Of a DNA stretch of 64,000 nucleotides, positions 1 to 16,135 are shown piece after piece. Each line of letters opens with the position of its first letter. Within the stretch, counting starts at the first letter, position 1. The notes beneath the pieces were generated by a model, which was given only the letters and a program-made list of their open reading frames with translations, was not told the DNA's origin and made no database searches. The DNA comes from Escherichia coli. GTDB taxonomy: Bacteria > Pseudomonadota > Gammaproteobacteria > Enterobacterales > Enterobacteriaceae. The position numbers were made by a program, and so were the translations under genes. Location: assembly GCF_965641715.1 (NCBI RefSeq), contig NZ_OZ282453.1, one strand, 5' to 3'.

Positions 1-2
1 CT

Positions 3-1547
<1,545 letters not shown>

Positions 1548-1554
1548 TAGGCCA

Positions 1555-1705
1555 GCACCGATGCCTGATGCGACGCTTGACGCGTCTTATCAGGCCTACG
1601 TATTTCCTGCAATTTATTGAATTTGCACAAATTTGTAGGCTGGATAAGGCGTTCACGCCGCATCCGGCATCTGGGCTCGATTGCCTGACGCGTCTGTTAT
1701 TTCCC
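1555..1705. repeat. REP/BIME cluster (about three palindromic units) in the convergent dtpD-phr junction
   Basis: Imperfect GC-rich palindromes such as gcctgatgcgacgc...gcgtcttatcaggcctac and ggataaggcgttcacgccgcatccggca, typical of E. coli REP elements. Confidence 0.7.
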
Positions 1706-3115
1706 CTTCCGCGCCGCCTCATACGCTGCCAACGTTTGTACTCTCGCCTCTTTGTGCTCGACTATCGGTTGCGGATAATCCAGCTTCACACCTGCTTTCT
1801 GCGCCCACTTCCACGGCTCATGCACCGATTTCCCCGGTACATTGCGTAGTTCCGGTAGCCACTGGCGGATAAACTCGCCTTCGCGGTCAAATTTCTCGCC
1901 CTGGGTTGTCGGGTTGAAAATACGAAAATACGGCGCTGCATCAGTACCCGTAGAAGCCGCCCACTGCCAGCCACCGTTATTAGCTGCCAAATCACCATCA
2001 ATCAGCTGCGACATGAAATATCGCTCGCCTTCGCGCCAGTCGATCAATAAATCTTTCACCAGAAAACTGGCTGTAATCATCCGTAGCCGGTTATGCATCC
2101 AGCCAGTGCTATTAAGCTGACGCATGGCAGCATCGACAATCGGGTATCCCGTTTTGCCTTCCTGCCAGGCCTGTAAATGTGCGGGATTGCTCTGCCACTG
2201 CACACGATCCGTCCAGGCAATAAACGGACAATGTTTACACAACGAGGGGTGATACGTTATCAGGTGACGGTAAAACTCGCGCCAGATCAGCTCACTAAGC
2301 CAGACACTACCGGCCCCACCGTCCAGCGCCTGCGGCTGTTCCGCCAACAAGCGATGCAAACACTGGCGAGGCGATAACCCGCCCGTTGCCAGGCTGGCGG
2401 ACAAACGACTGGTGCCTTCCACTGCCGGAAAATCTCGTTGTTGCTCATATTCTCCGGCACCGTTCTGGCAAAACTGGCGTAATTGCGCAATCGCCGCTTT
2501 TTCTTCCACCGGGAAATGCGCAGTATCGAAAGACTGACGAGGATAATTCAGCGTAATGGATGGCGCGGGCTTTATCGATCCGCTACTACGAACTTTTGGT
2601 GCAGCGACGCACTCCGGCATCCCTTCCCGCAGCCGTTTCAGCCAGGCATTCTTAAAAGGCGTAAAGACTTTGTACATCTCATGATTGCCGGTCATCACCG
2701 CGCCAGGCGGCAGGATCACGCTGTCATCAAATCCTTCACACACCACGTTACGCAGCGTTCTCTCAACCTGCACATCCCGCGCCCGCTCATTCACCTCATA
2801 CTGATAGTTATAAAAAAGATGAGTAACGCTGTTTTCCGCGCACACCTGTTTAACTATTTCGACGCTGGCGGCAAAGTCATCCACTTCACGGAACAATAAA
2901 GGAATGCCTTTTTCCGCCAGCGCGATTTGTAGCCCGTTCAGTTGAGCATTGATAAGTTCAGCCTGACGCGGCGACATATTATGCGCCGCCCACTGGCGTG
3001 GTGTAGCGATATACAACGCCAGCACGCGTGCAGACGAATTGCGGCAGGCGGCAGCCAGCGCGAGATTATCATGCAGACGTAAATCCTGGCGAAACCAGAC
3101 CAGATGGGTAGTCAT
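1697..3115 (-). CDS. phr: deoxyribodipyrimidine photolyase (472 aa)
   Basis: ORF begins MTTHLVWFRQDLRLHDN and contains the FAD-binding C-terminal photolyase motifs; its start overlaps the ybgA stop by 4 nt. Confidence 0.95.
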   Translation of the reverse strand: MTTHLVWFRQDLRLHDNLALAAACRNSSARVLALYIATPRQWAAHNMSPRQAELINAQLNGLQIALAEKGIPLLFREVDDFAASVEIVKQVCAENSVTHLFYNYQYEVNERARDVQVERTLRNVVCEGFDDSVILPPGAVMTGNHEMYKVFTPFKNAWLKRLREGMPECVAAPKVRSSGSIKPAPSITLNYPRQSFDTAHFPVEEKAAIAQLRQFCQNGAGEYEQQRDFPAVEGTSRLSASLATGGLSPRQCLHRLLAEQPQALDGGAGSVWLSELIWREFYRHLITYHPSLCKHCPFIAWTDRVQWQSNPAHLQAWQEGKTGYPIVDAAMRQLNSTGWMHNRLRMITASFLVKDLLIDWREGERYFMSQLIDGDLAANNGGWQWAASTGTDAAPYFRIFNPTTQGEKFDREGEFIRQWLPELRNVPGKSVHEPWKWAQKAGVKLDYPQPIVEHKEARVQTLAAYEAARKGK

Positions 3116-3621
3116 AAAACTCCTGAATGGCGCAAGTTAATCACACGCGGCCAAAGTTCGAAATAACGCTGCCCTGAAAGCCAGGCGTCAGGATAAAGCG
3201 CCATATAGTGTTTGATACGCATCAGCGGCGCAAGAAGCGGTTGCTCGCCACGGCGATAACTGTCGATAAGCGCCGCCAGCTGCTGGCGTTCTGTGGCATC
3301 AATATGCGGGCGAAAATACCCCTGAACGTGCATCAAAACGTTGGTGTGATCGCGCGGGTTGGCGGGATGAGAAAGCAAAACAATTACGCGTTGGCGGTAC
3401 TGGCTGTAAAAATCATCCAGATTTTGCCACTGGTGAATATCAGCCACGAACGGGCCAAGTTTGCGGTATTCCGGCTGGGAATGAGCCAGAAAGACGAGTT
3501 TATAGCGGCTGTGATAATCGAGAAGCGCCCCGCGCGTTAAGCCATGTTCTTTCAGTCGATGTAACTCATGAAGGGCGAAGATACGGATTAGGGTGCTGTC
3601 ATCAAATCGTTGCTGATTCAT
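3112..3621 (-). CDS. ybgA: DUF1722 protein, cotranscribed with phr (169 aa from internal Met; track ORF extends to 3711)
   Basis: Start chosen at MNQQRFDDSTL to match the recognised YbgA length; 4-nt overlap with the phr start. Confidence 0.8.
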   Translation of the reverse strand: MNQQRFDDSTLIRIFALHELHRLKEHGLTRGALLDYHSRYKLVFLAHSQPEYRKLGPFVADIHQWQNLDDFYSQYRQRVIVLLSHPANPRDHTNVLMHVQGYFRPHIDATERQQLAALIDSYRRGEQPLLAPLMRIKHYMALYPDAWLSGQRYFELWPRVINLRHSGVL

Positions 3622-3721
3622 TACTGCTCCTGAACGGTTTACAGGAGTAAGTGTAGACGGCGAAAAGAAAAAACCGCCAGCGTTTCCACTAGCGGTTTTC
3701 AATGTATTCAAAACTCAGCAA

Positions 3722-3928
3722 TCAGTAAAAATCACCGGTTGCCTTTTCGGCCTGATCCATCCAAACCGGTTTATCGCTGGTTTTCGACCAGACGCGATGC
3801 AGGTAGCTGTAAAAGCGGGCGCGGTCTTTCCAGAAAAGCATGAAAGGCAGCGCCAGAACGCCCGCTGCAACCGCATAAGTACGGCGTAAAAAGATAAGCC
3901 ATGCAGGATATTCTCTGTAGAGTTCCAT
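3722..3928 (-). CDS. ybfA: small DUF2517 membrane-associated protein (68 aa)
   Basis: 68-aa [19 protein letters not shown]... recognised as YbfA, divergent from kdpF. Confidence 0.8.
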
Positions 3929-4134
3929 ACTTTTCTCCCCCTTTTGTATCTACCCGGTGAATGGCACCGGAAAATGAATTTGTTTATCTGATGAAAATAG
4001 TACCGCCTTTTGTGTAATTTCACTACTCATCCGACCACTTATTTTTGCTTATTGATGGTTTATTTACATTCACCCTGTAATTAAGTTACACAAAAGTTAA
4101 ATTAATACTAAACATTAGTTAAATCATGGCTTTT

Positions 4135-4168
4135 GCCATTTTTATACTTTTTTTACACCCCGTCCGCA
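4135..4168 (+). promoter_or_regulatory. kdpFABC promoter-proximal KdpE operator (T-rich site)
   Basis: Sequence ttttatacttttttacaccccgtccg about 70 bp upstream of the kdpF start resembles the known KdpE-binding site; lies in an AT-rich divergent intergenic region. Confidence 0.5.
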
Positions 4169-4239
4169 GATTTTTGCGAAATCTTTGCAGCCAGAATTCT
4201 ACCCTTCCGGTATCACTTTTAGGCCACTGGAGGTGCACT

Positions 4240-4329
4240 GTGAGTGCAGGCGTGATAGCCGGCGTGTTGCTGGTGTTTTTATTACTGGGTTATCTGGTTT
4301 ATGCCCTGATCAATGCGGAGGCATTCTGA
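4240..4329 (+). CDS. kdpF: K+-transporting ATPase small subunit KdpF (29 aa, GTG start)
   Basis: In-frame GTG gives [29 protein letters not shown]; stop overlaps the kdpA ATG by 1 nt. Confidence 0.8.
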
Positions 4330-6002
4330 TGGCTGCGCAAGGGTTCTTACTGATTGCCACGTTTTTACTGGTATTAATGGTGCTGGCGCGTCCTTTAGGC
4401 AGCGGGCTGGCGCGGCTGATTAATGACATTCCTCTTCCAGGTACAGCGGGCGTTGAACGTATACTCTTTCGTTTACTTGGCGTCTCTGACCATGAGATGA
4501 ACTGGAAGCAATATCTTTGTGCCATTCTCGGCCTGAACATGCTGGGGCTGGCGGTGCTGTTTTTTATGTTGCTCGGTCAGCACTATCTGCCGCTTAATCC
4601 ACAGCAGTTGCCGGGGCTGTCGTGGGATCTGGCGCTCAATACCGCCGTCAGCTTTGTCACGAATACCAACTGGCAATCTTATAGCGGTGAAACCACGTTG
4701 AGCTATTTCAGCCAGATGGCGGGCTTAACGGTGCAAAACTTTCTTTCTGCCGCCAGCGGGATTGCGGTGATTTTTGCCCTCATTCGTGCATTTACCCGCC
4801 AGAGCATGAGCACACTCGGGAATGCCTGGGTCGATCTGCTACGCATCACGTTATGGGTGCTCGTCCCTGTGGCGTTGGTGATCGCACTGTTTTTTATTCA
4901 ACAAGGTGCGCTGCAAAACTTTCTGCCCTATCAGGCAGTGAATACCGTTGAAGGAGCGCAACAGCTGTTACCAATGGGTCCGGTGGCTTCTCAGGAAGCG
5001 ATCAAGATGCTCGGTACTAACGGCGGTGGCTTCTTTAATGCCAACTCGTCGCATCCGTTTGAAAACCCAACCGCACTGACCAACTTCGTGCAGATGCTGG
5101 CGATCTTCTTGATCCCAACAGCGCTGTGCTTTGCCTTTGGTGAAGTGACGGGCGATCGCCGCCAGGGGCGCATGTTGCTGTGGGCGATGTCAGTGATTTT
5201 TGTCATCTGCGTAGGCGTGGTGATGTGGGCAGAAGTTCAGGGTAATCCTCATCTGCTGGCGCTCGGCGCAGACAGCAGCATCAATATGGAAGGTAAAGAG
5301 AGCCGTTTCGGCGTGCTGGTCAGTAGCCTGTTTGCGGTCGTGACTACGGCGGCGTCCTGTGGCGCGGTGATTGCGATGCATGATTCGTTTACCGCTCTCG
5401 GTGGCATGGTGCCGATGTGGCTGATGCAAATTGGTGAAGTGGTATTCGGCGGTGTCGGTTCTGGTCTTTACGGCATGATGCTGTTTGTCCTGCTGGCGGT
5501 GTTTATTGCCGGGCTGATGATTGGTCGTACACCGGAATATCTGGGTAAAAAAATCGACGTACGTGAGATGAAACTGACTGCACTGGCGATTCTGGTCACC
5601 CCGACGCTGGTGCTGATGGGCGCGGCGCTGGCAATGATGACCGACGCCGGACGTAGCGCCATGCTCAACCCTGGCCCGCATGGTTTTAGCGAAGTGCTGT
5701 ACGCCGTGTCATCCGCCGCTAACAACAACGGCAGCGCCTTTGCCGGATTAAGCGCCAACTCTCCGTTCTGGAACTGTTTACTGGCGTTCTGCATGTTTGT
5801 CGGTCGCTTCGGAGTGATTATCCCGGTGATGGCAATTGCCGGTTCGCTGGTAAGTAAAAAGAGCCAACCCGCCAGCTCCGGCACGCTGCCAACGCACGGC
5901 CCGCTGTTTGTTGGCCTGTTAATCGGCACCGTGTTGCTGGTTGGCGCACTGACCTTTATCCCTGCCCTGGCGCTTGGTCCGGTGGCGGAATATCTCTCCT
6001 GA
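4329..6002 (+). CDS. kdpA: K+-transporting ATPase subunit A (557 aa)
   Basis: Internal Met [16 protein letters not shown] matches the KdpA N-terminus; the track ORF carries a 48-codon upstream extension. Confidence 0.95.
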
Positions 6003-6024
6003 TGATATTGAGTGAGCACTGAAT

Positions 6025-8073
6025 ATGAGTCGTAAACAACTGGCGCTATTCGAACCAACACTTGTCGTTCAGGCGCTGAAAGAAGCGGTGAAAAAATTAA
6101 ACCCGCAGGCGCAATGGCGCAATCCGGTGATGTTTATCGTCTGGATCGGCAGTCTGCTGACCACCTGTATTAGCATCGCGATGGCAAGCGGCGCGATGCC
6201 TGGCAATGCGCTGTTTAGCGTGGCCATTAGCGGCTGGCTGTGGGTCACCGTACTGTTCGCTAATTTCGCCGAGGCGCTGGCAGAAGGCCGCAGTAAAGCG
6301 CAGGCCAACAGCCTGAAAGGGGTGAAAAAAACTGCTTTTGCTCGCAAGCTGCGCGAACCGAAATATGGCGCTGTGGCAGACAAAGTTCCTGCCGATCAAC
6401 TGCGTAAAGGTGACATCGTGCTGGTAGAAGCTGGCGATATTATCCCCTGCGATGGTGAAGTCATTGAAGGCGGCGCATCGGTCGATGAAAGCGCCATCAC
6501 CGGGGAATCGGCACCGGTGATCCGTGAATCCGGTGGCGATTTTGCCTCCGTCACTGGCGGCACGCGTATTCTTTCTGACTGGCTGGTGATTGAGTGTAGC
6601 GTTAACCCCGGCGAGACATTTCTGGATCGGATGATCGCGATGGTGGAAGGCGCACAGCGACGTAAAACGCCGAACGAGATTGCCCTGACCATCCTGCTGA
6701 TTGCCCTGACTATCGTCTTTTTACTGGCAACCGCCACGCTGTGGCCGTTTTCCGCGTGGGGCGGTAATGCAGTCAGTGTAACGGTACTGGTGGCGCTGCT
6801 GGTCTGTCTGATCCCAACCACTATTGGCGGCCTGTTGTCAGCGATCGGCGTCGCCGGGATGAGTCGGATGCTGGGCGCGAATGTGATTGCCACCAGCGGA
6901 CGTGCAGTTGAAGCGGCGGGTGACGTTGACGTCCTGCTGCTGGATAAAACCGGCACCATCACACTCGGTAACCGTCAGGCGTCGGAGTTTATCCCCGCGC
7001 AGGGCGTGGATGAAAAAACGCTGGCTGACGCCGCACAACTGGCTTCGCTGGCTGATGAAACGCCGGAAGGCCGCAGTATTGTGATCCTCGCCAAGCAGCG
7101 TTTTAACCTGCGCGAGCGCGATGTGCAGTCGCTCCATGCCACCTTTGTACCGTTTACTGCGCAAAGCCGGATGAGCGGGATCAACATCGACAACCGCATG
7201 ATCCGTAAAGGTTCTGTCGATGCCATTCGCCGCCATGTTGAGGCTAACGGTGGTCACTTCCCTGCCGATGTTAATCAAAAAGTCGATCAGGTTGCGCGTC
7301 AGGGGGCCACGCCGCTGGTGGTGGTGGAAGGTTCTCGTGTGCTGGGCGTTATTGCGCTGAAAGATATCGTTAAAGGCGGCATTAAAGAACGCTTCGCGCA
7401 ACTGCGCCAAATGGGCATTAAAACGGTGATGATTACCGGCGATAACCGTCTGACTGCCGCCGCCATTGCCGCGGAAGCGGGTGTCGATGATTTTCTCGCC
7501 GAAGCGACACCAGAGGCCAAGCTGGCATTGATCCGTCAGTATCAGGCGGAAGGCCGTTTGGTGGCGATGACCGGCGATGGCACCAACGATGCTCCGGCGC
7601 TGGCGCAAGCAGATGTCGCGGTGGCGATGAACTCTGGTACTCAGGCGGCGAAAGAAGCGGGCAATATGGTGGATCTCGACTCTAACCCGACCAAGTTGAT
7701 CGAGGTGGTGCATATTGGCAAACAGATGCTGATGACCCGTGGCTCGCTGACCACCTTCAGCATTGCCAACGATGTGGCGAAATACTTCGCCATTATTCCG
7801 GCGGCGTTCGCGGCAACGTATCCGCAGTTAAATGCGCTGAACATCATGCGCCTGCATTCGCCCGACTCCGCCATTCTCAGTGCGGTGATTTTCAACGCCT
7901 TGATTATCGTCTTTTTGATTCCCCTGGCGTTAAAAGGCGTGAGTTATAAACCGCTTACCGCTTCTGCCATGTTGCGCCGTAACTTATGGATTTACGGTCT
8001 GGGTGGGCTGCTGGTGCCGTTTATTGGTATCAAAGTCATTGATTTACTGCTGACCGTTTGCGGTCTGGTGTGA
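6025..8073 (+). CDS. kdpB: K+-transporting P-type ATPase catalytic subunit B (682 aa)
   Basis: P-type ATPase motifs DKTGTIT and TGDGTNDAP present in the ORF. Confidence 0.96.
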
Positions 8074-8081
8074 GGTTTACC

Positions 8082-8654
8082 ATGAGTGGATTACGTCCGG
8101 CATTATCGACATTTATCTTTCTGTTATTGATTACTGGCGGCGTTTACCCGCTGCTGACCACCGCGCTGGGGCAATGGTGGTTTCCCTGGCAGGCCAACGG
8201 TTCGTTGATCCGTGAAGGTGATACGGTGCGCGGTTCGGCATTAATCGGGCAGAATTTTACCGACAACGGCTATTTTCAGGGTCGCCCGTCGGCAACGGCA
8301 GAAATGCCCTATAATCCACAGGCTTCTGGCGGGAGCAATCTGGCAGTCAGTAACCCCGAGCTGGATAAACAGATAGCCGCACGCGTTGCCGCATTACGGG
8401 CCGCTAACCCGGATGCCAGCACGAGCGTTCCGGTTGAACTGGTGACGGCATCGGCAAGCGGGCTGGACAATAACATCACCCTACAAGCGGCGGCCTGGCA
8501 GATCCCACGCGTAGCGAAAGCGCGTAATCTCAGCGTTGAACAGCTCACGCAACTGATCGCAAAATACAGCCAACAACCACTGGTGAAATATATCGGCCAG
8601 CCGGTCGTCAACATTGTCGAACTCAATCTGGCGCTGGATAAACTTGATGAATAA
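8082..8654 (+). CDS. kdpC: K+-transporting ATPase subunit C (190 aa)
   Basis: Internal Met [16 protein letters not shown] matches the KdpC N-terminus. Confidence 0.9.
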
Positions 8655-11331
8655 CGAACCCTTACGTCCCGACCCCGATCGTCTGCTGGAACAAACTGCC
8701 GCGCCGCATCGGGGGAAGCTGAAAGTTTTCTTCGGTGCCTGCGCAGGCGTCGGGAAGACCTGGGCGATGCTGGCAGAAGCCCAGCGACTGCGGGCGCAAG
8801 GGCTGGATATTGTGGTTGGCGTGGTAGAAACCCACGGGCGGAAAGATACCGCCGCCATGCTGGAAGGGCTGGCTGTTCTGCCGCCAAAACGCCTGGCGTA
8901 CCGTGGGCGGCACATCAGCGAGTTTGATCTCGATGCCGCCCTCGCCCGCCGTCCGGCGCTGATCTTAATGGACGAACTGGCGCACAGTAATGCGCCAGGT
9001 TCTCGTCATCCTAAACGCTGGCAGGATATCGAAGAACTGCTGGAAGCTGGCATTGATGTTTTCACAACCGTCAACGTTCAGCATCTGGAAAGTCTGAATG
9101 ATGTGGTCAGCGGCGTCACCGGAATTCAGGTACGGGAAACCGTGCCCGATCCTTTTTTCGATGCCGCCGACGACGTGGTGCTGGTGGACTTGCCCCCGGA
9201 CGATCTGCGCCAGCGGCTGAAAGAAGGCAAAGTCTATATTGCCGGGCAGGCGGAGCGCGCCATTGAACATTTTTTCCGCAAAGGCAATCTGATCGCCCTG
9301 CGCGAACTGGCACTGCGCCGTACTGCCGATCGCGTTGATGAGCAAATGCGCGCCTGGCGGGGGCATCCTGGCGAAGAGAAAGTGTGGCACACGCGCGACG
9401 CGATCCTTTTATGCATCGGCCATAACACCGGCAGCGAAAAACTGGTCCGCGCGGCGGCGCGGCTGGCGTCACGGCTGGGGAGCGTCTGGCACGCGGTGTA
9501 TGTTGAAACCCCTGCCCTGCATCGCTTACCGGAGAAAAAACGTCGGGCAATTCTCAGCGCCTTACGTCTGGCGCAGGAGCTGGGCGCGGAGACGGCAACA
9601 CTTTCTGATCCAGCGGAAGAGAAAGCGGTAGTGCGTTATGCCCGTGAACATAATCTCGGCAAGATTATTCTCGGTCGCCCAGCCTCGCGCCGCTGGTGGC
9701 GTCGGGAAACGTTTGCTGACCGACTGGCGCGCATCGCCCCCGATCTCGATCAGGTGCTGGTCGCGCTTGATGAACCACCCGCCCGCACGATTAACAACGC
9801 GCCGGATAGCCGCTCTTTTAAAGACAAGTGGCGGGTACAGATTCAGGGATGCGTGGTTGCCGCCGCGTTATGCGCCGTTATCACCTTAATTGCCATGCAG
9901 TGGCTGATGGCGTTTGATGCCGCCAACCTGGTGATGCTGTATCTACTTGGCGTGGTGGTGGTGGCGCTATTTTATGGACGCTGGCCTTCGGTGGTTGCTA
10001 CCGTCATTAATGTGGTGAGTTTCGATCTCTTTTTTATCGCCCCACGCGGCACGCTCGCCGTCTCTGATGTGCAATATCTGCTGACCTTCGCGGTGATGTT
10101 AACCGTCGGGCTGGTGATCGGGAACCTTACTGCTGGCGTGCGTTATCAGGCGCGGGTAGCCCGTTACCGCGAACAACGCACACGGCACTTATATGAAATG
10201 TCGAAAGCTCTGGCTGTGGGCCGCAGTCCGCAGGACATCGCCGCCACCAGCGAACAATTTATTGCCTCCACGTTTCATGCCCGCAGTCAGGTGTTGTTGC
10301 CCGATGACAACGGTAAATTGCAGCCGTTAACACATCCGCAAGGAATGACGCCGTGGGACGATGCCATCGCGCAGTGGAGTTTTGATAAAGGCCTGCCTGC
10401 GGGTGCGGGCACCGACACGTTACCCGGCGTGCCGTACCAGATTTTGCCGTTAAAAAGCGGTGAGAAAACCTACGGGCTGGTGGTGGTGGAACCGGGGAAT
10501 CTGCGTCAGTTGATGATCCCGGAACAGCAGCGCCTGCTGGAGACGTTTACGCTGTTAGTCGCCAATGCGCTTGAGCGGCTGACGCTGACCGCCAGCGAAG
10601 AACAGGCGCGGATGGCAAGCGAACGTGAACAGATCCGCAACGCCCTGCTGGCGGCGCTTTCGCATGATTTACGCACTCCGCTTACGGTGCTGTTTGGTCA
10701 GGCAGAAATCTTAACGCTCGATCTGGCAAGCGAAGGATCACCCCACGCCCGCCAGGCCAGCGAGATTCGTCAGCATGTGCTGAACACTACCCGACTGGTG
10801 AATAATCTACTGGATATGGCGCGAATTCAGTCCGGCGGCTTTAATTTGAAGAAAGAGTGGTTAACGCTGGAAGAAGTAGTCGGCAGCGCGCTGCAAATGC
10901 TGGAACCGGGTTTATCGTCGCCCATCAATCTTTCTCTGCCAGAACCGCTGACCTTAATCCACGTTGACGGGCCACTCTTTGAACGGGTGCTGATTAATCT
11001 GCTGGAGAACGCGGTGAAATATGCGGGTGCGCAGGCCGAAATTGGTATCGATGCCCACGTTGAGGGCGAAAATCTACAACTGGATGTCTGGGATAACGGC
11101 CCCGGTCTTCCGCCAGGCCAGGAGCAGACGATATTTGATAAGTTTGCTCGCGGGAATAAAGAGTCGGCAGTACCGGGGGTAGGGCTTGGACTGGCAATTT
11201 GTCGGGCGATAGTGGATGTACACGGGGGCACTATTACCGCGTTCAACCGACCGGAAGGTGGTGCCTGTTTTCGTGTTACACTTCCCCAGCAAACTGCCCC
11301 TGAACTTGAAGAATTTCATGAGGATATGTGA
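8647..11331 (+). CDS. kdpD: sensor histidine kinase KdpD (894 aa)
   Basis: Starts [14 protein letters not shown]; N-terminal KdpD domain with P-loop GACAGVGKT, four TM helices and a C-terminal HisKA/HATPase region; 8-nt overlap with kdpC. Confidence 0.93.
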
Positions 11332-12005
11332 CAAACGTTCTGATTGTTGAAGATGAACAGGCTATTCGTCGCTTTCTGCGCACGGCGCTGGAGGGCGACG
11401 GGATGCGCGTCTATGAGGCCGAAACGCTGCAACGCGGCTTGCTGGAAGCGGCTACCCGTAAGCCAGATTTGATTATTCTCGATCTCGGCCTGCCCGATGG
11501 TGATGGGATTGAGTTTATCCGCGACCTGCGCCAGTGGAGCGCGGTGCCGGTGATTGTGCTTTCCGCACGCAGCGAAGAGAGCGACAAAATCGCCGCGCTG
11601 GATGCCGGAGCGGATGATTATCTAAGTAAGCCGTTTGGCATTGGCGAATTGCAGGCCCGTCTGCGCGTCGCTTTACGCCGCCACTCCGCCACCGCCGCGC
11701 CCGATCCGCTGGTGAAATTTTCCGATGTTACCGTCGATTTAGCCGCCCGCGTGATTCACCGGGGTGAGGAAGAGGTGCATCTCACCCCGATTGAGTTTCG
11801 CCTGCTGGCAGTGCTGCTCAACAACGCCGGAAAAGTGCTCACCCAGCGCCAACTCCTTAACCAGGTGTGGGGGCCAAACGCGGTCGAACACAGTCATTAT
11901 TTGCGTATTTATATGGGGCATCTGCGACAAAAACTGGAGCAGGATCCCGCCCGCCCCCGCCATTTCATTACCGAAACCGGTATTGGGTATCGGTTTATGC
12001 TTTAG
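11328..12005 (+). CDS. kdpE: OmpR-family response regulator KdpE (225 aa)
   Basis: Receiver domain plus winged-helix output domain; 4-nt overlap with the kdpD stop. Confidence 0.95.
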   Translation: MTNVLIVEDEQAIRRFLRTALEGDGMRVYEAETLQRGLLEAATRKPDLIILDLGLPDGDGIEFIRDLRQWSAVPVIVLSARSEESDKIAALDAGADDYLSKPFGIGELQARLRVALRRHSATAAPDPLVKFSDVTVDLAARVIHRGEEEVHLTPIEFRLLAVLLNNAGKVLTQRQLLNQVWGPNAVEHSHYLRIYMGHLRQKLEQDPARPRHFITETGIGYRFML

Positions 12006-12296
12006 GGGTTGAAATGCCGGATGCGGCGTAAACGCCTTATCCAGCCTACTCATCGTCCCGTAGGCATGATAAGACGCGTCAGCGTCGCATCAGGCATGGC
12101 TCTGTGAATAACGTCGGCAAAAACTGGAAAAAGACCCCGCCCTCGCCATTTCATTACCGAAACCGGTATTGGGTATCGGTTTATGCTTTAGGGGCTGACT
12201 TGCCGGATGCGGCGTGAACGCCTTATCCAGCCTACTCATCGTCCCGTAGGCATGATAAGACGCGTCAGCGTCGCATCAGGCATTGGCACTCATGGC
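11928..12296. repeat. tandem imperfect direct repeat of about 170 bp (kdpE 3' end plus REP), two copies about 18 bp apart
   Basis: Copy A (about 11928-12099) spans the last about 78 bp of kdpE plus a REP; copy B (about 12118-12296) repeats it at roughly 90% identity with a 1-nt indel that shifts the frame of the kdpE-like part. Confidence 0.7.
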
Positions 12297-12304
12297 TAAA
12301 TATT

Positions 12305-12799
12305 TTAATGTGTATTTATCGCTTTCAACTCTTGCTGGCATTTTTCTGACTGGCAGCGTCGCAACTCAATAATCCCGACATGCATCATCGAGCCAATAAA
12401 GCCGCTTTCGCTGACATAATCCTCATTAACTATCGGTCGAGTGCCGGGCTTGCCCTGGCAAACCAGCATAAAAAATGAGGTGTAGCACTGCCAGCCGGGA
12501 TTTAAACCGGCTTTTTCTTGTGCTGACATATCGTGAAGATAAATAAGTTCTTTTTCGTTCCCGCCTGACAACTGCCAGCGGCGGGTATTATCAGGTAAGT
12601 TATCGCTACAACAATTTGTCTTACACCGGGAAGGCGCAATATTTACCGCAATGCTACCCTTTAACCCTCTGGTTTTATCTTTAGGGGTCAGTAACCAGTC
12701 GCCAGCTAATGATGATTGTTCAGGTTGGGCACATGCAGTCAGCAGTAGTGTGGCGGCAATGAATGTTACTCTTACGACCAGACTCCTTTTGGTCTTCAT
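12305..12799 (-). CDS. ybfP: lipoprotein YbfP (164 aa)
   Basis: Signal peptide with lipobox LLTAC; sequence recognised as YbfP. Confidence 0.85.
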   Translation of the reverse strand: MKTKRSLVVRVTFIAATLLLTACAQPEQSSLAGDWLLTPKDKTRGLKGSIAVNIAPSRCKTNCCSDNLPDNTRRWQLSGGNEKELIYLHDMSAQEKAGLNPGWQCYTSFFMLVCQGKPGTRPIVNEDYVSESGFIGSMMHVGIIELRRCQSEKCQQELKAINTH

Positions 12800-12850
12800 T
12801 TTGAATTCCCTTGAGCTATTCAGTTTGTTGGCAAAGTGCGCGTTGTTTTT

Positions 12851-12885
<35 letters not shown>

Positions 12886-12931
12886 AAATGATGCAAATTC
12901 AATATATTGCACCATCAGGCAGTCATACGTA

Positions 12932-12966
12932 AAAAAGGGCGATCTTGCGACCGCCCTTTTTTTATT
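12932..12966 (-). terminator. putative bidirectional intrinsic terminator downstream of pgm
   Basis: aaaaaagggcgatcttgcgaccgcccttttttt: GC stem flanked by an A-run and a T-run. Confidence 0.5.
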
Positions 12967-12974
12967 AAATGTGT

Positions 12975-14615
12975 TTACGCGTTTTTCAGAACTTCGCTAA
13001 CAATCTCAACCGCTTCTTTCTCAATCTGCTTGCGATGTTCTTCACCGAGGAAGCTTTCGCAGTAGATCTTATATGCGTCTTCCGTGCCTGACGGACGCGC
13101 GGCGAACCAGCCGTTGTCAGTCATCACTTTCAGACCGCCAATAGAAGCACCGTTGCCCGGAGCAGCTGTCAGGCGCGCGGTGATCGGGTCACCTGCCAGG
13201 GTGCTGGCGCTCACCATTTCCGGAGACAGCTTAGACAGCGCCGCTTTTTGTGCGGAAGTCGCAGCTGCCTGCAAACGGTTGTAGCTCGGCGCACCAAAGC
13301 GTTTTGCCAGTTCGTTGTAGTGTTCCTGCGGGTTCTTACCGGTGACAGCGGTGATTTCCGCCGCGAGCAGACACATGATGATGCCGTCTTTGTCGGTGGA
13401 CCACGGCGTGCCGTCGAAACGCAGGAAGGAAGCCCCTGCGCTCTCTTCGCCGCCAAAGCCGAAGCTGCCGTCGAACAGACCATCAACAAACCATTTGAAA
13501 CCTACCGGGACTTCTACCAGTTTACGGCCCAAGTCGTTGACCACACGGTCGATCATCGCAGATGAAACCAGCGTTTTACCGACGGCAACATCTTTGCCCC
13601 ACTGCGGACGATGCTGGAACAGGTAATTGATCGCCACCGCCAGGTAGTGGTTCGGATTCATCAAACCTGCCGGAGTGACGATACCGTGACGGTCATAATC
13701 CGGGTCGTTAGCAAACGCCAGATCGAACTTATCACGCAGTGCCAGCAGGCCTGCCATTGCACACTCAGAGGAGCAGTCCATACGGATCGCGCCGTCTTTA
13801 TCAAGGTGCATAAAGCGGAAGGTTTGATCGACCTGATCGTTAACGATAGTCAGGTTGAGGTTGTAATACTCGCCAATACGCTTCCAGTATTCGATACCGG
13901 AACCGCCCAGCGGATCAACGCCAAGCGTCAGGCCCGCTTTCTGAATCGCCGCCATATCAACGATATCGGCCAGCCCTTCCACGAACGGCTGCACCAGATC
14001 CTGCTCTTTCACATGACCGGATGCCATCGCTTCGTCGAGGGAGATACGCTTCACGCCTTTCAGGCCATCGGCCAGCAGTGCGTTGGCACGATCTTCCACC
14101 ACTTTAGTGACGTTGGTATCAGCCGGGCCACCATTTGGCGGATTGTACTTGATACCACCATCTTCCGGCGGGTTATGGGACGGTGTAATAACGATACCGT
14201 CTGCCAGCGGGCCACCTTTTTTATTGTGAACCAGGATGGCATTGGAAACGGCAGGCGTCGGGGTGAAGCCATTGTTTTCCTGCACAATAACATCTACGCC
14301 GTTCGCTGCCAGCACTTCCAGAACGGAAATAAATGCAGGTTCGGACAGGGCGTGAGTATCTTTACCCACATAGCAAGGGCCAGTGATGCCGTTTTTCGCA
14401 CGTTCTTCAGCAATTGCCTGAGCGATCGCCAGAATGTGCGGCTCGTTAAAGCTGTGGCGCGCTGCACTGCCACGGTGACCGGAAGTACCGAATTTCACCG
14501 CGTGCTCCGCATTCCCTGCTTCTGGTTTCAGTACATAATATTGCGCCGTCAGTTGGGCGACGTTAATCAAATCACTCTGTTGTGCAGGTTGGCCTGCACG
14601 ATTGTGGATTGCCAT
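12975..14615 (-). CDS. pgm: phosphoglucomutase (546 aa)
   Basis: Starts [12 protein letters not shown]; active-site region TPSHNP present; the track ORF has a 17-codon upstream extension. Confidence 0.95.
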
Positions 14616-14640
14616 TGCTTTGTCCTTTGTCTGCAACGTT

Positions 14641-15186
14641 TTAGATAGTTCCGCAAACCTTCTCAATCAATTCCGCCGGGAATTGCATCGACTGCATGAT
14701 GTGTTCGATCATGCTGCATTTACGGCCGGTGTTGGTGTTGGTGATCACCCAATACGGCGTGCCTGGCACATGTTTCGGCTTGGTCTGATTACCATTTTTC
14801 AGCAGCGTTTGTTCATCTGCCGCAAAGTAAACGCGTGTACGACCGTGCAACGATTCCGTTGCTTCGGCAAACGCCTGGGCGTCAAGAGAATATAGTGTAG
14901 ACAACAGCAGCATAAAGCGATTGACCGCTCGCTTTTGCTCTGCGTATTCATCCGAAAGCAGAAGTTCACGCATTGCGCGAACCTTGTCTTTAATCGTTTT
15001 GACCGGCTTCGCTTCGACGATAGCAGGTGACGCAACGCGAACCTCTTTCGTCACCGGAGCAGCAGGCTGTGATGCGGCGGAAAATTTCAACATACGCCGT
15101 AAAATGTCGGATGCGCTCTCGCCGATATGCTTAGTGTGGCTGGCAATATAGCTGTAGAGTTCATCATCAACTTCAATCGTTTTCAT
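14641..15186 (-). CDS. seqA: negative modulator of replication initiation SeqA (181 aa)
   Basis: Internal Met [18 protein letters not shown] matches the SeqA N-terminus; 25 bp upstream of pgm (seqA-pgm operon). Confidence 0.9.
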
Positions 15187-15370
15187 CTTAATCCAGTGCA
15201 GTGTCTTAGCTGAATACAAGTCGCCAGGAGTATATGAATAAATCCCGGCAGCGGATAGCGTCAAGCCTGGCTTGCAGAAAAACTCGGAATAAACCTTATT
15301 TGTTGCAGCCCTGTGGCACAATGGTCAACATAATACCCTAACCCGACAACGCGAAAAAAAGAACTTTGCC

Positions 15371-16135
15371 ATGAAATTGAATATCCGCGCGCAAACTGCA
15401 CAAAACCAGCACAATAATTCTCCCATCGTTCTTGTCCATGGTCTGTTTGGCAGCCTCGACAACCTTGGCGTACTGGCTCGCGATCTGGTAAACGATCACA
15501 ATATCATCCAGGTTGATATGCGTAACCACGGTCTTTCACCGAGAGATCCGGTAATGAATTACCCGACGATGGCGCAGGATCTTGTTGATACCCTGGATGC
15601 ACTGCAGATCGACAAAGCAACATTTATCGGTCACTCCATGGGCGGTAAAGCGGTAATGGCACTTACTGCACTGGCCCCCGATCGCATCGATAAACTGGTG
15701 GCGATCGATATCGCACCGGTCGACTATCACGTACGCCGTCATGATGAGATTTTCTCGGCTATCAACGCGGTCAGTGAATCGGACGCACAAACTCGCCAGC
15801 AAGCAGCAGCAATAATGCGCCAGCATCTTAATGAAGAAGGGGTGATTCAGTTTCTGTTGAAATCTTTTGTTGACGGGGAGTGGCGCTTTAACGTGCCGGT
15901 ATTGTGGGATCAGTATCCGCATATTGTGGGTTGGGAGAAAATCCCGGCATGGGATCACCCTGCCCTGTTTATCCCTGGTGGTAATTCTCCGTATGTTAGC
16001 GAGCAGTACCGTGATGATTTACTGGCACAATTTCCACAGGCACGGGCGCATGTGATTGCAGGCGCGGGTCACTGGGTCCATGCTGAAAAACCGGATGCGG
16101 TATTACGCGCTATCCGTCGCTATCTCAATGATTAA
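15371..16135 (+). CDS. ybfF: alpha/beta-hydrolase esterase YbfF (254 aa)
   Basis: GHSMGG nucleophile elbow; full-length ORF. Confidence 0.9.
   Translation: MKLNIRAQTAQNQHNNSPIVLVHGLFGSLDNLGVLARDLVNDHNIIQVDMRNHGLSPRDPVMNYPTMAQDLVDTLDALQIDKATFIGHSMGGKAVMALTALAPDRIDKLVAIDIAPVDYHVRRHDEIFSAINAVSESDAQTRQQAAAIMRQHLNEEGVIQFLLKSFVDGEWRFNVPVLWDQYPHIVGWEKIPAWDHPALFIPGGNSPYVSEQYRDDLLAQFPQARAHVIAGAGHWVHAEKPDAVLRAIRRYLND

Follow-up and report, generated by a model that had tools for sequence, protein, structure and literature searches.

The segment from 4135 to 4331 almost certainly comprises the start of the Escherichia coli kdpFABCDE operon: its sigma-70 promoter, which KdpE activates, followed by the 5′ leader and the first cistron. 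We analyzed it within its window, that is, the whole 64,000-nucleotide stretch of DNA, whose numbering is used throughout. Annotation, literature and cross-species conservation agree that the kdp operon starts here, as a preliminary description made from the sequence had proposed, and no evidence contradicting the kdp identification was found. The six genes follow one another in the order F-A-B-C-D-E on one strand; all open reading frames are intact, and their lengths equal those of K-12. Gene translations and junction distances were computed by script for the six candidate genes, and the junctions were also read by eye from the sequence. The genes are as follows.

4240–4329, + strand: kdpF, 29 codons (29 aa), GTG start, TGA stop at 4327–4329
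4329–6002, + strand: kdpA, 557 aa, ATG start at 4329–4331
6025–8073, + strand: kdpB, 682 aa, ATG start
8082–8654, + strand: kdpC, 190 aa, ATG start
8647–11331, + strand: kdpD, 894 aa, ATG start within the last kdpC codons
11328–12005, + strand: kdpE, 225 aa, GTG start overlapping the kdpD TGA

A 471-bp region of the locus had a match in 5,423 of 5,426 complete E. coli genomes, all annotated as kdpF/kdpA, with a top identity of 99.4%. In the two closest complete E. coli genomes, the genes are annotated kdpF to kdpE, and the gene boundaries assigned by PGAP are the boundaries found here.

We then compared the locus with the kdpFABCDE operon of K-12 (b4513 and b0698–b0694). In RefSeq, the genes of K-12 MG1655 lie at 728732–728821 (kdpF), 727059–728732 (kdpA), 724988–727036 (kdpB), 724407–724979 (kdpC), 721730–724414 (kdpD) and 721056–721733 (kdpE). 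Gene order, the six CDS lengths and the start codons, including GTG for both kdpF and kdpE, are shared, and the five junctions are identical (−1, +22, +8, −8 and −4). The comparison with annotated K-12 starts, which the preliminary description had suggested as a check, thus gave identical starts and boundaries for all six genes. The KdpE half-sites, −10 hexamer, Shine-Dalgarno (SD) site and leader of the K-12 kdpFp promoter are likewise identical base for base; the promoters differ at a single base, C to T at position 4163, in the interval that separates the KdpE box from the core promoter. The two operons differ more widely elsewhere. Nucleotide identity per gene is 96.3–98.5% (a divergence of 1.5–3.7%), each Kdp protein carries 1–8 amino-acid changes, T7A in KdpF among them, and the kdpE stop codon is TAG here and TGA in K-12. 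The flanks also differ, as rhsC is absent upstream and speF-potE is absent between kdpE and pgm in the window.

KdpE site, core promoter and leader

By the established mechanism, KdpD phosphorylates KdpE under K+ limitation, and a dimer of phosphorylated KdpE (KdpE~P) binds the direct repeat TTTATA-N5-TTTACA (here at 4141–4157). The promoter that it switches on contains a TAnnnT −10 element and no consensus −35. The following elements were assigned upstream of kdpF.

4138–4158, + strand: KdpE recognition site given as the minimal 21-bp binding fragment, T-rich, reading cATTTTTATACTTTTTTTACAc
4141–4146 and 4152–4157, + strand: KdpE half-sites S1 (TTTATA) and S2 (TTTACA), separated by a 5-bp spacer; 4141–4157 as a whole reads TTTATACTTTTTTTACA
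4200–4205, + strand: probable −10 hexamer TACCCT (TAnnnT), with T4200, A4201 and T4205 invariant in the Enterobacterales alignment
4208–4213, + strand: putative transcription start region, with A4212 conserved
4229–4233, + strand: kdpF Shine-Dalgarno site GGAGG, nearly invariant in the Enterobacterales alignment

KdpE half-sites S1 and S2, lying 5 bp apart, were established in EMSA and ultracentrifugation experiments (Narayanan et al. 2012, PMC3264566), and the minimal KdpE-binding fragment is 21 bp long, extending from 3 bp 5′ of S1 to 1 bp 3′ of S2 (PMC3264566). The half-sites at 4141–4157 match the published ones exactly. The exact pattern TTTATA-N5-TTTACA occurs once in the 64-kb window and in none of 100 shuffles; when one mismatch was allowed, a match was found in 24 of the 100 shuffles. 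Binding of KdpE to the identical K-12 sequence has been demonstrated by EMSA, ultracentrifugation and genomic SELEX (PMC3264566, PMC5934670), and the kdpF/ybfA spacer was the single genomic SELEX target of phosphorylated KdpE (PMC5934670).

Conservation was examined in 80 loci encoding KdpA relatives, taken from one genome per species, in which kdp genes were located by tblastn, and the region upstream of kdpF was aligned for 20 Enterobacterales. This alignment revealed four conserved blocks, namely the KdpE box, TAnnnT at 4200–4205, A4212, and GGAGG together with the start codon. The KdpE box is nearly invariant among the 20 Enterobacterales and deeply conserved across the 80 species.

The box lies about 82–99 nt upstream of the kdpF GTG. 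The preliminary description had noted a T-rich KdpE site about 70 bp upstream of kdpF. The site itself stands, with its exact half-site match, but the distance does not, as the box is 83–99 nt from the GTG; the figure was off by 15–30 nt because the literature value of about −70 counts from the transcription start and not from the start codon. A transcription start at about 4212, which we infer from the alignment, would place the half-sites between −71 and −55, which fits the published DNase footprint of KdpE (−72 to −50, cited in PMC3264566). In a 2018 construct study, which used a derivative of the promoter, the two half-sites are numbered −67 to −62 and −56 to −51. The published numberings are thus about 4 nt apart, and the exact +1 is uncertain by a few bases.

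Downstream of the KdpE site, the promoter continues with a GC-rich spacer, then TTTTTGCGAAATCTTTGCA at 4171–4189, and then TACCCT. A consensus sigma-70 scan of 3900–4400 found no canonical −35/−10 pair, as would be expected for an activator-dependent promoter. Two hairpins that had been scored as terminator-like were rejected as chance: one at 4126–4139 has a 5-bp stem adjoining the KdpE box, and the other, at 4258–4274, falls within the kdpF reading frame. Folding of the RNA from the leader through kdpF to the F/A junction revealed nothing remarkable (z = −0.8). In Bacillus, the kdp leader carries a riboswitch, a c-di-AMP element. An Rfam scan of 3900–4400 at E ≤ 1 returned no RNA family, which argues against a leader riboswitch of that kind here. 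On this layout, a transcript starting near 4212 would begin with roughly 28 nt of leader that includes a strong GGAGG, and ribosomes would start at GTG 4240 to produce KdpF, a 29-aa membrane peptide.

A KdpE-box-like repeat next to the core promoter

Exactly 32 bp, or three helical turns, downstream of the known box lies a further direct repeat with the same 6+5+6 geometry.

4173–4189, + strand: KdpE-box-like direct repeat TTTGCG-aaatc-TTTGCA, in the would-be −35 position (about −39 to −23)

This proximal repeat ends 10 bp upstream of the −10 hexamer. Two hexamers within or overlapping it were considered as −35 elements and rejected on their spacers to TACCCT, which are 20–21 bp for TTGCGA (4174–4179) and 9–10 bp for TTGCAG (4185–4190).

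We analyzed the conservation of the repeat in two ways. A half-site matrix was built from the distal boxes and scanned between the box and kdpF; the proximal repeat was the best secondary match, at offset +32, in 17 of 20 Enterobacterales. Mismatches to TTTAYA-N5-TTTAYA were then profiled over offsets in 19 Enterobacterales and 43 other loci. At +32, the mean number of mismatches was 2.68 in the Enterobacterales, compared to 7.92 ± 1.07 over all offsets, and 4.12 in the other loci, compared to 8.49 ± 0.74. Exactly 10 bp separate the repeat from a downstream TAnnnT motif in 17 of the 19 Enterobacterales and in 22 of the other 43 loci. In a gapless alignment of the 62 loci, 59 of the proximal 17-mers are distinct. 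Conservation of the repeat extends from Enterobacterales, at a weaker level, to other Proteobacteria, including many Betaproteobacteria; these loci are phylogenetically related, and the counts are not independent.

The repeat fits the layout of a class II box of the OmpR/PhoB type, in that an 11-bp-periodic direct repeat resembling the half-sites is present and a −35 consensus is not. Pho boxes show the same −35-replacing arrangement, and the torCAD promoter combines distal high-affinity TorR boxes with proximal boxes overlapping the −35. The pmrA box, which belongs to this class, replaces the −35 element and is arranged in the same way relative to the −10 (PMC10570014); 4173–4189 resembles it as an 11-bp-periodic repeat placed 10 bp from the −10 without a −35. 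In contrast to the class II promoters of the OmpR/PhoB family, however, the only documented KdpE site is distal, centered near −61. In the literature we searched, which did not extend to Sugiura et al. 1992 or Narayanan et al. 2014, no second KdpE site is mentioned. In 2018, cryo-EM of KdpE together with RNA polymerase was attempted with a derivative of the promoter “containing −35 and −10 elements”; KdpE was lost, and no crosslink between KdpE and RNA polymerase was obtained. This is the only published attempt to image KdpE together with RNA polymerase, and there is no structure of the complex.

One reading is that 4173–4189 is a proximal low-affinity KdpE site in the pho-box position, from which KdpE touches sigma region 4. 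We regard this as possible, though somewhat short of probable. The shared geometry, the +32-bp offset and the 10-bp distance to TAnnnT all point in this direction, as do the sharp minimum of mismatches to the KdpE consensus at +32 and the presence of TTTACA in the upstream half of the repeat in several genera. Single substitutions in a half-site are known to keep partial KdpE binding (PMC3264566), but both proximal halves in E. coli have G at position 4, and a dinucleotide mutation of the TTTA core abolishes binding (PMC3264566). Similarly, the loss of KdpE in the cryo-EM attempt, made on a derivative with −35 and −10 elements, is consistent with a proximal site, but the published DNase footprint is confined to −72 to −50. 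The conservation, counted as it is over related loci, may also have other causes, such as a non-canonical −35/sigma contact, an alpha-CTD contact or phased T-tracts.

Tentatively, we propose a two-box kdp promoter, though we consider it rather doubtful. In such a promoter, 4173–4189 would be a second, low-affinity KdpE box on the proximal side, or at the least an element that is conserved and functional, and KdpE~P would engage sigma-70 region 4 as PhoB and PmrA do. If true, it would explain why distal KdpE makes no visible contact with RNA polymerase on the promoter derivative. As a second KdpE site, the repeat may serve as a lead and not as a result; as a side observation, it may be new.

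Gene junctions and translation starts

The preliminary description had also seen a chain of overlapping junctions and a whole six-gene unit that looked translationally coupled. The five junctions are as follows.

F/A: −1 nt, TGATG, the A of the kdpF TGA being the A of the kdpA ATG (4329–4331)
A/B: gap of 22 nt (+22)
B/C: gap of 8 nt (+8)
C/D: −8 nt, kdpC ending at 8654 and the kdpD ATG lying at 8647
D/E: −4 nt, GTGA, kdpD ending at 11331 and the kdpE GTG lying at 11328

The three overlaps that had been described were borne out, namely the single base shared by the kdpF stop and the kdpA ATG (TGATG at 4327–4331), the 8 nt shared by kdpC and kdpD (8647–8654) and the 4 nt shared by kdpD and kdpE (GTGA at 11328–11331). 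The chain as such holds at three of the five junctions: stop and start codons overlap at F/A, C/D and D/E, but not at A/B (+22), and B/C (+8) comes near to this only loosely. Coupling of the whole unit was overstated, given the A/B and B/C gaps, the SD sites that several genes have of their own and a C/D overlap confined to Escherichia. Translational coupling within the operon is plausible, especially at F/A, C/D and D/E.

The next element, inside kdpF, bears on how kdpA is initiated.

4317–4321, + strand: kdpA Shine-Dalgarno site GGAGG, within the KdpF codons Ala-Glu-Ala, anti-SD energy −9.5 kcal/mol

An SD-like GGAG or GAGG is found at this place in all 21 Enterobacterales. The anti-SD energies are −6.3 kcal/mol for kdpC, −6.1 for kdpE and −4.7 for kdpB; kdpF, kdpA, kdpC and kdpE have SD sites of their own. 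In kdpD, no SD is recognisable, and its −3.1 kcal/mol is at background level.

The junctions also differ in their conservation. For F/A, 18 of 21 Enterobacterales have −1. A kdpF was recognisable in 51 further loci, most of them betaproteobacterial, and 47 of these have −4, −1, 0 or +1; the junction is clearly under constraint. Of 15 D/E junctions scored in Enterobacterales, 13 are −4 and read (A/G)TGA; elsewhere, D/E is variable. The 8-nt C/D overlap occurs in Escherichia only, and most other genera have gaps of +2 to +16; the outliers are Erwinia psidii (+158) and Erwinia endophytica (−4, its kdpD start being uncertain). At A/B and B/C, the genes are separated in nearly every locus.

These data can also be read as compact operon packing, in which each cistron is initiated independently, kdpDE has a promoter besides, and the unit is not meaningfully coupled. 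We consider this credible without expecting it to be correct. The SD sites of kdpF, kdpA, kdpC and kdpE, that of kdpA conserved in all Enterobacterales scored, would allow independent starts, as would the gaps at A/B and B/C and the small gaps that replace the C/D overlap in most non-Escherichia genera scored. The kdpDE genes reportedly also have a low-level constitutive promoter of their own inside kdpC. A consensus sigma-70 scan of 7900–12400 found nothing above the shuffle expectation and no + strand site within kdpC, so this internal promoter was not located. Against independent initiation, the F/A junction is kept within −4 to +1 across very distant Proteobacteria, D/E reads (A/G)TGA in most Enterobacterales, and the SD-less kdpD is hard to square with an efficient independent start on read-through transcripts.

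Coupling at the overlapping junctions would resemble that of the trp operon, where reinitiation takes place at UGAUG or AUGA (trpE/trpD, trpB/trpA). The kdp F/A junction is UGAUG and the D/E junction is GUGA; at C/D, as known here from sequence, the AUG comes 8 nt before the stop. Unlike in trp-type coupling, kdpA has a strong SD of its own. Ribosomes translating kdpF would terminate at the UGA whose final A also begins the kdpA AUG. They could then re-initiate on kdpA, or new ribosomes could load at the strong SD located within the final kdpF codons. The sequence thus lends support to termination-reinitiation as a possible mechanism at three junctions, F/A, C/D and D/E. C/D and D/E are most likely the junctions at which coupling to upstream translation would matter, and kdpD is possibly the gene that would depend most on coupling among the three.

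The kdpF start at GTG, as first described, agrees with K-12 RefSeq, with the SD site, with the codon alignment across genera and with the 29-aa structures; kdpE, in addition to kdpF, is GTG-initiated. The anti-SD duplex of kdpF has an energy of −10.6 kcal/mol, the strongest of the six genes (random 20-mers, −2.35 ± 2.34), and the SD-to-GTG spacing of 4–6 nt is optimal. Reading the sequence between the putative transcription start (about 4212) and 4240 gave no in-frame start codon. Among 21 Enterobacterales, 17 have GTG and 4 have ATG at the aligned start position; outside this order, kdpF is mostly ATG-initiated. Reviews give the length of KdpF as 29 aa (PMC12648545), and 28 of the 29 residues here are those of the KdpF chain in KdpFABC structures (25 PDB entries), T7A being the sole difference. 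A literature search returned no N-terminal sequencing and no start-site ribosome profiling for kdp under inducing conditions.

A kdpF start elsewhere, either at ATG 4126, from which the list of open reading frames gives a same-frame ORF of 67 aa (4126–4329), or at GTG/TTG codons at 4252, 4264 or 4267, several such codons being in frame among the first 12 of kdpF, can be set aside as extremely improbable: ATG 4126 is upstream of the KdpE box and the −10 element and hence off the kdp transcript; 4126–4239 is promoter DNA, and in the Enterobacterales alignment the sequence upstream of the kdpF start diverges among genera with non-triplet indels; GGAGG is 6 nt from GTG 4240 and at least 18 nt from the downstream candidates; and KdpF as annotated and as observed in structures has 29 aa, with residue 5 (the possible alternative GTG) being V, L or I across genera and codon 1 always GTG or ATG. 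The 67-aa ORF was accordingly rejected, because its ATG precedes the KdpE box and sits in promoter DNA; both this ORF and a TTG-extended kdpA ORF (4185) begin upstream of the putative transcription start and are not conserved in other genera. TTG-extended ORFs of kdpC (8058) and kdpD (8614) were also rejected, as they show no conservation in other genera.

Implications

The findings of the preliminary description are all already known from the K-12 annotation and the KdpE literature. The locus is thus a correct positive control, in which the regulatory site identified is real, as are the junction overlaps and the start of a 29-codon gene at a codon other than ATG. If functional, the proximal KdpE-like repeat would be of modest interest for the understanding of OmpR/PhoB-type activation.

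Repeats and hairpin upstream of kdpF

The region upstream of the potassium-pump operon kdpFABCDE holds three features near the known KdpE box (half-sites TTTATA, 4141-4146, and TTTACA, 4152-4157):

4096-4124: block ATACTAAaCATTAGTTAAAT, immediately upstream of the KdpE box
4126-4139: small hairpin ATGGCTTTTGCCAT, followed by a T-run; flagged as terminator-like
4173-4189: second KdpE-box-like direct repeat, TTTGCG-aaatc-TTTGCA

The second repeat follows the known box at an offset of 32 bp and precedes the probable -10 hexamer (TACCCT, 4200-4205) by 10 bp. Its exact offset from the box is kept in Enterobacterales and many Betaproteobacteria. We found no earlier description of this repeat in the accessible literature.

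Within the upstream block are an inverted repeat, ACTAA-aca-TTAGT, and a sequence, AGTTAAAT, that occurs twice at a distance of 21 bp. An alignment of the region from 20 Enterobacterales shows conservation of the block in Escherichia, Citrobacter, Kluyvera, Pseudescherichia and Mangrovibacter. For the divergent gene ybfA, the block may act as an operator or a promoter element. The terminator-like hairpin, which immediately adjoins the KdpE box, is probably a chance match. A 67-aa in-frame ORF opened by the ATG of this hairpin was rejected as spurious.

Gene neighbourhood and strain relationship

The gene order over positions 1-16000 of the window is dtpD, phrB, ybgA, ybfA, kdpFABCDE, a hypothetical gene, pgm, seqA and ybfF.

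12305-12799, minus strand: hypothetical gene of 164 aa, between kdpE and pgm

Unlike E. coli K-12 MG1655, the window lacks rhsC between ybfA and ybgA, and speF-potE downstream of kdpE. The highest identity to complete RefSeq E. coli genomes over 16 kb was only 98.7%, and the source strain therefore has no close representative among them.

Coding signals within the operon

4317-4321: kdpA Shine-Dalgarno sequence GGAGG, lying in the codons for the conserved Ala-Glu-Ala near the KdpF C terminus
11328-12005: kdpE, start GTG, stop TAG

The kdpE stop codon is TAG in the window, whereas it is TGA in K-12. Like kdpF, kdpE begins with a GTG codon, an observation absent from the preliminary description.

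An SD-like GGAG or GAGG stands at the kdpA Shine-Dalgarno position in all 21 Enterobacterales (21/21). Because this motif, encoded by the KdpF Ala-Glu-Ala, is retained throughout, bases 4317-4321 are probably under dual constraint, as protein-coding sequence and as a ribosome-binding site.
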